Of a stretch of 51,108 nt of DNA, positions 15,202-24,673 are shown piece after piece. Both the position numbers and the translations under genes were made by a program. Under the pieces are notes generated by a model. The model did not search any database. It saw only the letters and a list, made by a program, of their open reading frames with translations, and was not told the DNA's origin. The DNA comes from Planctomycetota bacterium (GTDB lineage: Bacteria; Planctomycetota; UBA1135; UBA2386): NCBI GenBank assembly GCA_049889335.1, contig JBMHDP010000068.1, forward strand, positions 1 to 51,108, read 5' to 3'. The stretch's first letter is position 1, and every line of letters begins with the position of its first letter.

Positions 15202-18200
15202 TTGGCCACCAACTCGAAAAAGACCCCCAGCAAGAGCGCGGGCGCGAAGCGCCCCGGCAGCCGCAAGAACCCGGCGGAGCGCGCGGCGTCGGCTCAACAG
15301 ATCGTGGTCCGCGGCGCTCGGGAGCACAACCTGAAGAACGTCGACCTGCAGTTCCCGCGGGACACGCTGACGACGTTCACCGGCGTGTCGGGCTCCGGCA
15401 AGTCGAGCCTCGCCTACCACACGATCTACCAGGAGGGACAGCGGCGCTTCCTGGAGAGCCTGAGCTCGTATGCGCGCCAGTTCCTCGGGCGGATGGAGAA
15501 GCCCAAGGTCGACCAGGTCGAGGGGCTGTCGCCGACCGTCTCGATCGACCAGAAGTCGACCAGCCACTCGGCGCGGTCGACGGTCGGGACGTTGACCGAG
15601 GTGATGGACTTCCTGCGGCTGTGCTGGTCGCGGCTCGGGACCCCGCGCTGTCCGGAGTGCGACGCCGAGATCGAGGCGTGGTCTCCCGACCGCATCGTCG
15701 ACGCCGTGCTCGCCGACCACGACGGGCAGGCCGCGATGGTGCTCGCGCCCGTCGTGCGAGAGCGCAAGGGCGAGTACCGTAAGGAGCTCGCTGAGTGGGC
15801 GCAGAAGGGGTTCGTGCGCGCCCGGGTCGACGGGGAGATCCGGCGCCTCGACGAGGACATCCAGCTCGAGCGCTACGTCTACCACACCATCGAGCTGGTC
15901 GTGGACCGCTTGACGATCCGCGGCGACGCCCGCTCGCGGGTCGCCGACGCCGTCGAGCAGGCCGTGCAGCTCGGCGGTGGTCTCTGCACGCTGGTCGACA
16001 GCGCCGGCGCGAACGACCGGTTGTTCTCGACGCAGCGCGCCTGTCCGAACGGCCACGGCGCGCTGCCGGAGATGGAGCCGCGGCTGTTCTCGTTCAACAG
16101 CCCGCTGGGTGCGTGCCAGGAGTGCGACGGGATCGGGCAGACCTTCGGCTTCGCGCCGGAGCTGCTGGTCCGCGACCCGGCCGCGTCGATCCGGGCAGGC
16201 GCGCTGCACGTGTTCAACGACGAGGGGCGCCTCGTCTACGGACGGCTGACCGTGGAGCACCTGCAGGCCGTGCTCGAGGCGTTCGGCGGCGACGTCGACA
16301 CGCCGTGGCGCAGGCTGAGCAAGCGGGCGCAGCGCGTCGTGCTCCACGGCTCGGGGCGCAAGACCTTCGAGTTCAAGTGGCAGCGCAAGACGGCGAACTT
16401 CGCCACGTCGGGCCGGGAGAAGATCGCGTTCCCGGGCGTGCTCGGGCACCTGGAGCGCGTCTATCGGCCCTCCCGCGCGCGACACCTCGACCGGTTCCGG
16501 GCCGCGACCGGCTGCCCTGCGTGCGACGGCAGCCGGCTGTCGCCCGCTGCGCGCGCGGTGCGCTTCACCGGCCGCGCCCTGCCCGAGGTGCTGGAGTTGT
16601 CGGTAGACGACGCGCTCACCTGGGTCCGCGGCGTCGAGCTCACGGGGAACGAGCTCCGCATCGGCCGCGACATCCTCAAGGAGATCGAACGCCGGCTGAC
16701 CTTCCTGGCCGACGTCGGTTTGGGCTACCTCACGCTCGCGCGCCGGGCCTCGACCCTCTCGGGCGGCGAGTCCCAGCGGATCCGTCTGGCGGCGCAGGTC
16801 GGCGCGGGTCTCCGCGGCATCCTCTACGTGCTCGACGAGCCGAGCATCGGTCTGCACGCGCGTGACCAACAGCGGCTGCTGCGCACGCTGGAGGCGCTCC
16901 GCGACCGCGGCAACACGGTCGTCGTGGTCGAGCACGACGAAGAGACCATGGAGCGCAGCGACTTCCTCGTCGACGTGGGCCCCGCCGCGGGCGCCCACGG
17001 CGGCGAAGTGGTGTCCGCCGGCACGCCCGAGCAGGTCAAGGCCGACGAGGGTTCGATGACCGGGCAGTACCTGCGGGGCGCGCTGCAGGTCCCGGTGCGC
17101 AGCGAACGCCGGCATGCCGAGCTGGGCCGCCTCGGAGTCCGCGGCGCGCGACACCACAACCTCCGCGGCCTCGACGTCGACCTGCCGCTGGGGCGGTTCG
17201 TCGCGGTCACCGGCGTCTCGGGTTCCGGCAAGTCGACGCTCGTGCACCACGTCCTGGTGCCGACGGTGCGGGACCGCCTCGCGGGCAAGGGCGTCGCGCC
17301 GGCGCACTGCGACGCCGTCGAGGGCATCGAGCTGCTCGACAAGCTGGTCGAGATCGACCAGAAGCCGATCGGCCGGACTCCCCGGAGCAACCCCGCGACC
17401 TACACCGACGTGTGGACGCACGTCCGCGACCTCTTCGCGATGCTGCCGGAGTCGCGGCTGCGCGAGTACAAGAAGGGCAGGTTCTCCTTCAACGTGGCCG
17501 GCGGCCGCTGTGAGGAGTGCCAGGGGGCCGGCGTGAAGACGCTGGAGATGAACTTCCTCGCGCCCGTGGAGGTCGTCTGCGACGAGTGCGCGGGGGCCCG
17601 CTTCCACGCCGACACGCTCGCCATCCGCTTCAAGGACAAGAACGTGTCCGACGTCCTCGAGATGACCGTCGAGGAGGCGGCGGCGTTCTTCGAGGACCTG
17701 CCGAAGATCGCCCGCGGCCTCGAGGCGCTGCGGGACGTCGGCCTGGGCTACCTCAAGCTCGGGCAGCCGTCGACGACCCTGTCCGGCGGCGAGGCGCAGC
17801 GCGTCAAGCTCGCGACCGAGCTGCAGCGCCCCGCGACCGGCAAGACGCTCTACATCCTCGACGAGCCGACGACGGGGCTGCACTTCCAAGACGTCGCCCG
17901 GCTGCTCGACGCGCTGCAGCGGCTGGTCGACGCAGGCAACAGCGTGATCGTGATCGAGCACAACCTCGACGTCCTGCGCGCGGCCGACACGCTCGTCGAC
18001 CTGGGCCCGGAGGGCGGGGTCGGCGGCGGTCGCCTCATCGCGACGGGCACCCCCGAAGAGGTCGCGGACATCGAGGGCTCGCACACGGGCGCGGCGCTGC
18101 GCGCGCTGGGGCTCGGCAAGAAGCGGCGCCGCAAGCGCGCCGGCGGCGCGCGGGCGAAGGGGGCCCGGGCGGTCGCGCCCGAGGCGATCTCGGTGCGCGG

Positions 18201-22817: not shown

Positions 22818-24673
22818 CGCGACTGAGCCTTAGGGTGCTGCTCCGCGGGAGCGACGAGGACGTGCAGCTCGAGTGTCTGCGGCGCTGGTGCGGCGAGGAC
22901 GACGACAAGAAGCTGCGTTCGCGCGCGGGCAAGCCGGTGCTCGGCCGCGCCAGCAGCGCCATGGAGGACGAGGCGCTGGTCCTGGAGCGCATGACGGCGC
23001 TGCCGCGCAAGCTGCAGGACCTCCTGGACGTGTTCTTCGAGCCGGGGGCCGCGGTGCGCACCGTGCAGGAGCTGTTCCAGGGCTACGGCGCGAACTTCAA
23101 GAGTCGCTTCGACCTCGAGGCCTCGCTCGCGGCGCTCCACCGAGAGGCGTTCCTCTGGCCGGTGCGCGACAAGCGCTGGGCGCACTTCGACAGCCCGGCG
23201 TGGGCGGCCCCGAGCGAGCTGGTCGAGTGCGTGCTCGCCTACCGGGAGCGTCGGGAGCGGCAGCTGCCCGACACGCTGACGCTGCAGGGATTCCTGCAGG
23301 CGCGCTACTTCCAGAAGCACAAGCAGGACGCCGGCACCCAAGAAGAGAAAGAGCAGCGCGCCGCCGACCACGCCAGGAAGATCTACAAGCTCTACACGCT
23401 CGAGGCGGCGATGCAGCAGCGGCTCGACAAGCTGCCTGCGCACGTGCGCGCGGTGGTCGAGGCGACGCTGTACACGCACGGCGGGATCGCGTCCTACGAG
23501 GAGTTGGTCAGCGAGGTCGACGGCGCAGCGCCGCCGGACTTCGAGTTGTTGGGCAAGAGCCTGGAAGAGTCGATGCTGGGCACGACCGCGAACCTCGACG
23601 TCTCGCGCGTCGGGATCCAGCCCTACCAGCAGGGCGTCGTGGTGTTCCACGAGGTCGCGCTGTGGGCGCTGCGGCGTCGCACCGACGAGCAAGAGGTGGC
23701 GGTCGAACAGGAGCTCTGCGCGCGGAGCGACCTCGCCACCAACGTCTGCAAGTTCCTGCGGGAGCTGCAGCAGAGCAAGGTGCTGTTCACGGCCGAGGGG
23801 GAGCTGTTCAAGGCGTCGGCCAAGCGGATCGCGGGGGCGCTCTTGTCCATCCCGGGCGGGTTCCTCCCCGCGGAGTCGCAGCTGGAGGTGATCTACCGGT
23901 TCTGCCTGCAGCGGCGGCTCATCGATCGACGCGGCGAGCGCGCGCTGCGGCCGACGACGACCGGGCTGCAGTTCGAGCGCGCGTCGCTCTCGGACCAGCT
24001 CAAGCTGCTGCTCAGCCACTTCGTCGAGGAGCGCACCCTGCCCGGCGAAGCGTTCCACCACACGAGGATGCGGCGCGTGCTGCTGCGGCTCCTGAAGCGC
24101 GGCGAGCCGCTGCGCTGGGGCGACGTCGCGACGCTCCCCTTCCTGACCCGTAACGCCTATCTGTCGCAGCTGGACACGGCCGCCGCGGAGGAGTTCTTCG
24201 CGGCGCGCTTCCAGGGCGGCGCCTACACGCCGAGCGAATCGCTCCAGCAGATGGCCTGGAACCTGCTCGTATGGATCAAGAAGCGGCTCTTCCCGCTCGG
24301 CCTCGTGGACATCGGGACGCAGGGCGGCCGCGTCACCGCGCTGCGACTTTCACGTCTGGGCGCTGAGCTGCTCGACGCGGAGATGTCCACGAAGGTGGGC
24401 GGCACGCGGTGTTCGGTCATCGTGCAGCCCGACTTCGAGGTCCTGGTCTTCCCGGGTGACGACGAGCACGAAGTGCTGCACCTGTTCGACCGGTTCGCGG
24501 CCCGCGTCAAGAGCGACCACGTCTACCACTTCCGGCTCGACCGGGAGAGCGTGCAGGCAGGCGTCGAGGACGGCCTCTCCGGTCCGCAGATCGTGCAGGA
24601 GCTCAGCGATCGCGCGCGCGTGCCGCTGCCGCAGAACGTCCTCTACAGCCTGGAGGACTGGACGCAGTCCTAG
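22814..24673 (+). CDS. XPB-associated helical protein with a C-terminal XPB-NTD-like (p52/Tfb2 clutch-like) domain
   Basis: 619 aa. The GTG start overlaps the XPB stop (GTGA). The protein is mostly predicted helical. Its C-terminal ~85 aa (VIVQPDFEVLVFPG...YHFRLDRESVQAGVEDGLSGPQIVQEL...PLPQNVLYSLEDW) aligns by eye to the XPB N-terminal domain of the preceding gene. Confidence 0.7.
   Translation: MTRLSLRVLLRGSDEDVQLECLRRWCGEDDDKKLRSRAGKPVLGRASSAMEDEALVLERMTALPRKLQDLLDVFFEPGAAVRTVQELFQGYGANFKSRFDLEASLAALHREAFLWPVRDKRWAHFDSPAWAAPSELVECVLAYRERRERQLPDTLTLQGFLQARYFQKHKQDAGTQEEKEQRAADHARKIYKLYTLEAAMQQRLDKLPAHVRAVVEATLYTHGGIASYEELVSEVDGAAPPDFELLGKSLEESMLGTTANLDVSRVGIQPYQQGVVVFHEVALWALRRRTDEQEVAVEQELCARSDLATNVCKFLRELQQSKVLFTAEGELFKASAKRIAGALLSIPGGFLPAESQLEVIYRFCLQRRLIDRRGERALRPTTTGLQFERASLSDQLKLLLSHFVEERTLPGEAFHHTRMRRVLLRLLKRGEPLRWGDVATLPFLTRNAYLSQLDTAAAEEFFAARFQGGAYTPSESLQQMAWNLLVWIKKRLFPLGLVDIGTQGGRVTALRLSRLGAELLDAEMSTKVGGTRCSVIVQPDFEVLVFPGDDEHEVLHLFDRFAARVKSDHVYHFRLDRESVQAGVEDGLSGPQIVQELSDRARVPLPQNVLYSLEDWTQS

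Follow-up and report, generated by a model that had tools for sequence, protein, structure and literature searches.

A p52/Tfb2-like protein encoded beside XPB, downstream of a fused uvrA, in Planctomycetota

In eukaryotic TFIIH, the clutch of p52 has the same fold as the N-terminal domain of the XPB helicase, and the two domains associate in a pseudo-symmetric dimer through which XPB is recruited and its activity tuned (PMC6422496). Archaeal XPBs are without the N-terminal domain that pairs with p52, and isolated actinobacterial XPB is a weak helicase and ATPase in vitro (PMC3353954); in the experimental literature, bacteria have neither a p52 homologue nor a known XPB complex. What bacterial XPB does has been an open question since 1997, and a review from 2026 still calls its function elusive (PMC13024598). 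Here, we describe three tightly packed plus-strand genes on a 51,108-nt contig with ~72% G+C (JBMHDP010000068.1; the whole contig is called the window below) of a Planctomycetota metagenome-assembled genome (MAG). They encode a tandem UvrA-UvrA fusion (open reading frame 1, ORF1), an XPB helicase (ORF2), and a p52/Tfb2-like protein (ORF3).

Both fused UvrA and bacterial XPB are already known, and the new result is the bacterial p52-like partner. A literature search found no description of such a protein, although its coverage was incomplete and an earlier recognition is possible. An initial annotation of the window had proposed three co-transcribed plus-strand genes joined by GTGA overlaps, the first encoding two complete UvrA units, the second an XPB-type helicase and the third an XPB partner with an XPB-like terminal domain, and it saw no uvrB, uvrC, or nuclease gene nearby. 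That outline is borne out by the data below, which also alter its account of the partner and of what the three proteins do together.

How does the locus compare with described systems? The closest counterpart is the XPB-p52 pair of TFIIH (Ssl2-Tfb2). In both, an XPB with an N-terminal domain is accompanied by a partner that consists of a winged-helix array and a clutch-type domain; p52 is the top structural match of ORF3, and the sequence of the window's XPB lies nearer to that of eukaryotic XPB than to that of archaeal XPB. The two systems differ in that the operon of the window has no p8-binding domain and no context of p8, p34, p44, p62, or XPD, and in that the pair sits in a bacterial operon downstream of uvrA. 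Moreover, p52 has ~460-510 aa whereas ORF3 has 619 aa, falls short of the Pfam Tfb2 model, and has a clutch-like domain that is shortened in the clade of the window. Actinobacterial XPBs (M. tuberculosis Rv0861c, Kineococcus) share with ORF2 the NF045503 family, the N-terminal domain, and the lack of a C-terminal extension, but it is for the XPB of the window that a partner gene has been identified. The M. tuberculosis neighbour of XPB, Rv0862c, may be a member of the ORF3 family. Archaeal XPB-Bax1 is likewise a prokaryotic XPB encoded beside a dedicated partner gene; Bax1, however, is a nuclease, whereas ORF3 is p52-like and no nuclease domain was detected in it.

For the first gene, the nearest relatives are the fused UvrA of Tuwongella and Gemmata and the long UvrA of chlamydiae (presumably the protein described by NF001885, a long excinuclease ABC subunit A model), all with two UvrA units per chain. 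The lineage of the window differs from the fused UvrAs of other Planctomycetes in that genes for XPB and the p52-like protein follow uvrA. In contrast to class II UvrAs (D. radiodurans UvrA2 and DrrC-type drug-resistance proteins), ORF1 keeps the UvrB-binding domain in both halves.

A bacterial XPB and its p52/Tfb2-like neighbour

The second gene of the operon (21102-22817, plus strand, 571 aa) encodes an XPB/ERCC3-type superfamily 2 (SF2) helicase-translocase that is a bona fide XPB. It scores 800 bits against the NCBIfam XPB equivalog model NF045503 (repair_heli_XPB; cutoff 610) and has three parts: an N-terminal domain (aa 16-139), a helicase core in which the Walker A, DEVH, and RED motifs are present, and an ERCC3_RAD25_C domain. 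The N-terminal domain is of the p52-binding type and matches positions 1-120 of the 125 in Pfam Helicase_C_3 (E=7e-30). The Walker A motif reads LPCGAGKT (GAGKT at aa 221-225); the DEVH motif (22044-22055) and the XPB-specific RED motif (22134-22142) lie exactly where they had been reported, and a 38-aa stretch colinear with eukaryotic XPB was located at 22116-22229. The best sequence matches of ORF2 in the PDB are eukaryotic XPB/Rad25 (2.7e-79), followed by archaeal XPB (5e-47).

What does the third gene encode? ORF3 (22814-24673, plus strand, 619 aa) does end, as first described, in a domain like the N-terminal domain of XPB: residues 535-618 match Helicase_C_3 (9e-12), which is the sole strong Pfam match of the protein, and they are 28% identical to the N-terminus of the XPB of the same operon (E=5e-5). 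An identity of just 28% rules out a recent duplication of the XPB domain into ORF3, and the sequences identify the two domains as old paralogues. The initial annotation had undersold the rest of the protein. By structure model and Foldseek comparison, ORF3 is a full-length p52/Tfb2-like protein, beyond a mere copied domain: a tandem winged-helix array (~aa 1-525) is followed by the clutch-like, XPB-type alpha/beta domain (aa 535-618).

The AlphaFold2 model of ORF3 has a predicted local distance difference test score (pLDDT) of 92.7 and a predicted template modelling score (pTM) of 0.88. In a Foldseek search of the PDB with this model, the top 19 matches are all p52/Tfb2 chains (E values between 6e-8 and 1.4e-3, under 1e-3 for 18 of the chains), with alignments of 320-490 columns that take in essentially the entire p52 chain. 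The TM-scores against p52 are low (~0.2), as expected for a flexible multidomain chain. The next matches are XPB N-terminal domains, mostly with a root-mean-square deviation of 1.2-1.7 A over ~90 residues. Residues 1-525 modelled alone (pLDDT 93.2) match the crystal structure of the N-terminal half of p52 (6tru_A; probability 1.0, E=4.6e-3, 352 columns), with a comparable match to Pol III C82.

A single-sequence search of the PDB with ORF3 found nothing, so the likeness to p52 is visible only through the family profile and the structure model. Searched against the PDB, the profile of the ORF3 family finds XPB N-terminal domains (1e-5) and the p52/Tfb2 clutch of human, yeast, and Chaetomium (2-6e-3). 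ORF3 itself stays below the gathering score of Pfam Tfb2 (PF03849; 12.9 bits, E=0.052, cutoff 34.5), and 10 of 60 family members match this model at E<=0.1, the best at 1.8e-5. The family is large, with 1,475 cluster representatives in an exhaustive profile search (E<=1e-3). It has a sister subfamily of ~900-aa proteins to which it aligns in hhalign with a probability of 100% (E=1.3e-39, 457 columns). Nearly all members of the subfamily match Pfam Tfb2, the best with 33.8 bits against the 34.5-bit cutoff, along with Helicase_C_3 and WYL.

Proteins of the ~900-aa subfamily carry Helicase_C_3 a second time and end in a WYL domain (locus L094, 8001-12542; locus L091, 1744-4467). A Streptomyces relative (P0431) similarly combines WYL and Helicase_C_3. 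WYL domains are common in bacterial regulators that respond to single-stranded DNA or to damage.

The homology of the ORF3 clutch to that of p52 is established, and the colinear architecture of a winged-helix array plus clutch is p52-like. Judged from the models, homology of the N-terminal array to that of p52 is probable. At the C-terminus of ORF3 (24344-24673), the clutch-like domain is shortened, as it is in the other relatives of ~619 aa, whereas distant relatives of ~670 aa have the full domain. Because just 106 nt precede the next gene, this is a clade-wide shortening of the C-terminus and not a frameshift.

Is the XPB-ORF3 pair confined to the vicinity of uvrA? Distant contexts could be read at three loci (L090, L093, and L094; L092 ends at a contig edge and L091 is too short). 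In all three, the ORF3-like gene adjoins XPB and UvrA is absent from the vicinity. The order at L090 is glycoside hydrolase, XPB, partner, and L093 has a stand-alone XPB-partner pair. In L094, which belongs to a 4.7-Mb genome with 56% G+C, the order is reversed, the partner preceding XPB; DnaB is encoded upstream of the pair and MutS two genes downstream. XPB and an ORF3-like partner are adjacent in every informative context. What is conserved as a unit is thus the helicase pair and not a UvrA-XPB hybrid machine.

The fused UvrA and the history of its linkage to XPB

The first gene (uvrA; 15202-21105, plus strand) encodes a protein of 1967 aa, in which an N-terminal unit (~aa 35-965) and a C-terminal unit (~aa 997-1950) are joined by a basic linker (~aa 965-995). 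The two halves are 47% identical across ~967 aa, and both units are complete: there are four intact sets of Walker A, signature, Walker B, and H-loop motifs, hence four ATPase sites, and Pfam finds UvrA_inter and UvrA_DNA-bind (the UvrB-interaction and insertion domains) twice each. Each unit has the C-terminal CxxC...CxxC zinc finger (at aa 770 and 1742), whereas in each the first zinc module is degenerate (CPEH... in the C-unit).

Against the NCBIfam UvrA equivalog models, ORF1 scores ~2300-2380 bits in two stretches (cutoffs 730-1147), and the NCBI name for this UvrA is 'excinuclease ABC subunit UvrA'. The C-half aligns over its full length with the class-I structure 2r6f (residues 6-956; 7.9e-263), and end to end with the UvrA structures of B. 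stearothermophilus, T. maritima, and M. tuberculosis. The alignment with class-II D. radiodurans UvrA2 (2vf7) begins only at residue 279 of the C-half. The UvrB-binding domain has been lost from class-II UvrAs, which act independently of UvrB. On their sequences, both halves of ORF1 are class-I UvrA units. Among 52 tandem UvrAs, the majority-residue frequency in the UvrB-binding domain of the N-half is 0.73, against 0.72 for the whole protein. A long UvrA of the chlamydial type was considered and rejected, as ORF1 scores 1270 bits on the 1809-position model NF001885, whose cutoff is 3054.

Fused UvrA is a published form in Planctomycetes (Mahajan et al., PMC8567305; Tuwongella, Gemmata), and in Tuwongella immobilis all four UvrABCD subunits have been detected, the fused UvrA included (PMC8567305). 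Planctomycetota abound in tandem UvrA homologues of 1900-2050 aa, whose range extends to Kiritimatiellia. More than 100 independent assemblies encode them, which rules out the assembly artefact at the fusion junction near 18.1 kb that had been named beforehand as a possible source of error. The tandem UvrA is the ordinary, phylum-wide UvrA of Planctomycetes and is not new.

When did XPB and ORF3 become linked to this gene? A search of GTDB species representatives with an ORF3-family profile built from 16 sequences gave 414 loci, and the results that follow are from the best 80, which are labelled Planctomycetota or are likely to be mis-binned. The order tandem uvrA, XPB, ORF3 is found in all 65 loci with enough upstream DNA, and the synteny that had been proposed as a check on the operon is therefore conserved. 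Across these loci, identity falls to 37% for ORF3 and to ~50% and 46% for the two halves of UvrA. The sequence allows a 4-nt overlap at 70 of the 75 junctions between UvrA and XPB and at 74 of the 84 between XPB and ORF3. The surrounding genes are equally syntenic, in the order S13 peptidase, inositol-P phosphatase, uvrA, [XPB, ORF3], thiE, thiL, tsaE, sigma factor, OEP.

Several loci call for a comment on their labels or assembly. At L020, L012, L026, and L054, ORF3 is 58-89% identical and lies on contigs whose records name Brocadiaceae, Singulisphaera, or the gammaproteobacterium Luminiphilus sp.; such labels are probably errors of binning or automatic classification and not the true hosts. 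At L004 (2235-10004), uvrA and XPB are in fragments in an assembly of 2.3x coverage, and at L089 (1880-8013) uvrA is split into ORFs of 576 and 1490 aa. The splits are likely to be sequencing frameshifts, not real pseudogenes.

Sampling by UvrA instead of ORF3 brought in two genomes without XPB. In L007 (62% identity), XPB and ORF3 are absent, and uvrA ends in a 4-nt overlap with the beginning of thiE (13787-13790). In L009 (48% identity), a tandem uvrA without XPB has unrelated neighbours. A neighbour-joining tree of UvrA, which carries no support values, places L007 within the cassette-bearing clade as the sister of L075, and L009 outside it. Since L007 is nested and L009 is an outgroup, the XPB-ORF3 cassette goes back to a single gain and has since been lost, cleanly, at least one time, with the fusion persisting. 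The uvrA-thiE overlap in L007 indicates that such overlaps reflect dense operon packing and not shared function; in L008, overlaps are also found at the suhB-like-uvrA and ORF3-thiE junctions. The adjacency of uvrA and XPB is real and lineage-specific, and it goes back to one ancestral event in one Planctomycetota lineage.

Expression signals and neighbouring genes

The three genes of the window are joined by 4-nt GTGA overlaps at 21102-21105 (ORF1/ORF2) and 22814-22817 (ORF2/ORF3), and a Shine-Dalgarno-like GAGGAG(G) motif lies 8-9 nt 5' of each start. Tightly packed in this way, they very probably form a co-transcribed unit. ORF3 begins with GTG at 22814, inside a longer mechanical ORF (21854-24673), and the bias in G+C at third codon positions (GC3) indicates that its frame is truly coding from ~22840 to 24640. 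GC content is uniform over all three genes.

Where does uvrA start? The NCBI annotation pipeline PGAP places the start at GTG 15304 (1933 aa), whereas comparative data favour TTG at 15202. The latter is preferred because the N-terminal 34 aa that it adds to ORF1 are conserved among relatives and because the start codon, which alternates between TTG and GTG, occupies one aligned position 3' of a conserved promoter-like element. This element and a short leader (15150-15201, plus strand), recognised by their conservation in the clade, comprise CTGGCCA, a 16-nt spacer, TATGGT, and a G-rich Shine-Dalgarno-like run. In the close clade, the pattern CTGGCCA...GCTATGCT...GGGGTTCG...TTG/GTG is kept, with the spacing CTGGCCA-N16/17-GCTATGCT. 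The element may act as a promoter. A generic sigma-70 scan did not call it, and a search for an SOS box 5' of uvrA found no conserved palindrome, just the promoter-like element. Transcription of uvrA, XPB, and ORF3 together from the conserved element is likely, and translation of the XPB-ORF3 module is probably coupled to that of uvrA. A weak terminator-like hairpin found by consensus scan in the 106-nt gap past ORF3 (24710-24733, plus strand) may mark the end of the operon; such sites are no more numerous in the region than expected from shuffled sequence, and the hairpin is a hint only. An Rfam scan of 12-28 kb gave no matches.

The flanking genes are core housekeeping genes and are syntenic in relatives. 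On the 5' side of uvrA lie an inositol-monophosphatase-like gene and a small divergent ORF (14736-15110, minus strand, ~124 aa). The latter is acidic and has no Pfam match; counterparts of 108-116 aa occupy the same position in L003 and L005. On the 3' side, ORF3 is followed after the 106-nt gap by a flavin adenine dinucleotide (FAD) amine-oxidase/GLF-like gene (24780-26243), which lies between ORF3 and thiE and has a lower G+C content (~0.66 vs 0.72). It is present at this site in closer relatives only; in deeper relatives, thiE begins 1 nt past ORF3 (L066, L089) or overlaps it by 8 nt (L008). The FAD amine-oxidase/GLF-like gene thus seems to have been inserted into this operon later. Elsewhere in the window, two well-supported coding regions with GC3 ~0.9, at 3370-4614 (414 aa) and 36632-37465 (277 aa), have no Pfam match at E<=1e-5.

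Pfam annotation of the genes from 286 to 40368 revealed no uvrB, uvrC, or nuclease gene. A search for uvrB in the whole window and in 94 further loci, with an E. coli UvrB query, gave no match and is uninformative.

Possible roles of the XPB-ORF3 pair

What might this combination of genes do? The operon probably unites a UvrABC-type fused uvrA with a functionally separable, co-transcribed XPB-p52-like translocase module. The fused UvrA would be the single-chain equivalent of the canonical UvrA dimer. Most probably, it would sense lesions and load UvrB in ordinary UvrABC excision repair, because the class-I domains are all kept and because UvrB, UvrC, and UvrD are published as co-occurring with it in another planctomycete. 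For the other two proteins, a heterodimer of XPB and ORF3 is the most economical model, because the adjacent genes encode the same pair of N-terminal and clutch domains as in TFIIH. The clutch-like domain of ORF3 may pair with the homologous N-terminal domain of XPB in a pseudo-symmetric heterodimer; XPB would be anchored by this contact, and its ATPase-translocase stimulated or gated, while the winged-helix array of ORF3 would supply contacts to DNA or to other partners. The homology of the domains is demonstrated; that they touch, and with what effect, we infer from the example of TFIIH.

The XPB-ORF3 module would have entered the uvrA-thiE site once, in the ancestor of one large Planctomycetota lineage, and would mostly have been kept there. 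Its role is most likely related to DNA damage, and could be, for example, to open the duplex or to translocate where lesions or stalled complexes occur. Three observations point to damage processing: the linkage to uvrA, the vicinity of MutS and DnaB in L094, and the WYL domain of the sister subfamily. There is no indication that the module replaces UvrB or binds UvrA.

The initial annotation had suggested that XPB takes the place of UvrB as the motor to which the UvrA pseudo-dimer is coupled. This suggestion is not supported: the UvrB-binding domains are kept, the fusion is the ordinary UvrA of the phylum, and each part occurs separately. In a wider form, it holds that the fused UvrA senses lesions and passes them to the motor formed by XPB and its partner, either in addition to UvrB or as a substitute for it, through direct contact with XPB or ORF3, in a hybrid excision pathway. 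Such a pathway would fit with the fact that all 65 informative loci, at ORF3 identities down to 37%, retain the gene order and the 4-nt overlaps, with the absence of uvrB and uvrC from the annotated part of the window, and with the relaxation of the UvrB-binding domain in the C-half (0.55 vs 0.73), where one UvrB site could be repurposed. It is nonetheless decidedly unlikely. The tandem UvrA predates and outlives the cassette, as shown by the outgroup L009 and the nested secondary loss in L007; in Tuwongella, fused UvrA is found alongside UvrB, UvrC, and UvrD (PMC8567305); and the UvrB-interaction domain is still matched in both halves. XPB-partner pairs occur without UvrA in three of three independent contexts, and an identical overlap joins uvrA to thiE in L007. 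Adjacency by itself weighs little, since the entire housekeeping neighbourhood is equally syntenic. It is very doubtful, too, that in this Planctomycetota lineage the fused UvrA recruits an XPB-p52-like heterodimer by physical contact, perhaps via the fast-evolving UvrB-binding domain of the C-half. If this were true, the two sides of one chain would load different proteins, UvrB and an XPB-type translocase, in a genuine hybrid of bacterial and eukaryote-type excision repair, and the XPB-p52 core of TFIIH may have begun as a bacterial repair module.

Could the adjacency be neutral? The XPB/p52-like module might be unrelated to excision repair, serving for example in transcription- or replication-associated translocation, and hitch-hike on a uvrA-thiE operon. 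The linkage of uvrA to XPB has a single origin, the XPB-partner pair is found in unrelated contexts elsewhere, and unrelated genes are as tightly packed (uvrA-thiE in L007; suhB-like-uvrA and ORF3-thiE in L008); moreover, the function of bacterial XPB is still called elusive (PMC13024598). Neutral adjacency is nevertheless unlikely, given that the cassette still follows uvrA directly in deeply diverged genomes, only one loss having been seen, that the pair in L094 lies near DnaB and MutS, that the sister subfamily has WYL domains, and that eukaryotic XPB is a repair translocase. A system for surveillance of phage or plasmid DNA, in which a UvrA-like ABC ATPase works with an SF2 helicase as in MADS- or Pbe-type defence, is extremely improbable. 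PADLOC does match ORF1 to mad3 and mad8 and ORF2 weakly to PbeA, but these matches reflect generic UvrA and SF2 homology, ORF1 scoring ~2300 bits on the UvrA equivalog models, and ORF3 has no PADLOC match. The flanking housekeeping genes are kept in synteny, GC content is uniform over the three genes, and there is no signature of a methyltransferase, nuclease, or mobile element. After the PADLOC scan and annotation of the context, which revealed neither the full gene set of such a system nor a defence island, defence was rejected.

Some observations weigh against a TFIIH-like pair that is separable from an ordinary UvrA. The similarity of the N-terminal array to p52 is only modestly above that to Pol III C82, which is a tandem winged-helix protein. 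In the clade of the window, the clutch-like domain is without the last ~45 residues that most relatives keep (83 of 125 Pfam positions), and the C-terminal p8-binding domain of p52 is absent, as ORF3 ends inside the clutch-like domain at aa 619; with a shortened clutch and no p8-binding domain, the interface with XPB could differ from that in TFIIH. In the fusion, the UvrB-binding domain of the C-half (18568-18900, ORF1 aa ~1123-1233) is the least conserved folded segment (0.55, against 0.73 in the N-half), and its relaxation leaves room for a changed partner. This divergence between the halves suggests a functional asymmetry of the covalent dimer. That at least 65 species-level genomes have long retained the cassette right after uvrA would also fit a closer functional tie, and no uvrB was found in the DNA of the window and loci that were searched.

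If the ORF3 family are p52-like partners of XPB, the weak in vitro activity of isolated bacterial XPB would be explained by a missing subunit. The pair would then offer a minimal two-protein XPB-p52 system for mechanistic work on TFIIH disease mutations, and the origin of the XPB-p52 unit of TFIIH, whether bacterial, archaeal, or transferred, would become testable. The conserved operon with uvrA is the first hint from genomic context that links bacterial XPB to excision repair.

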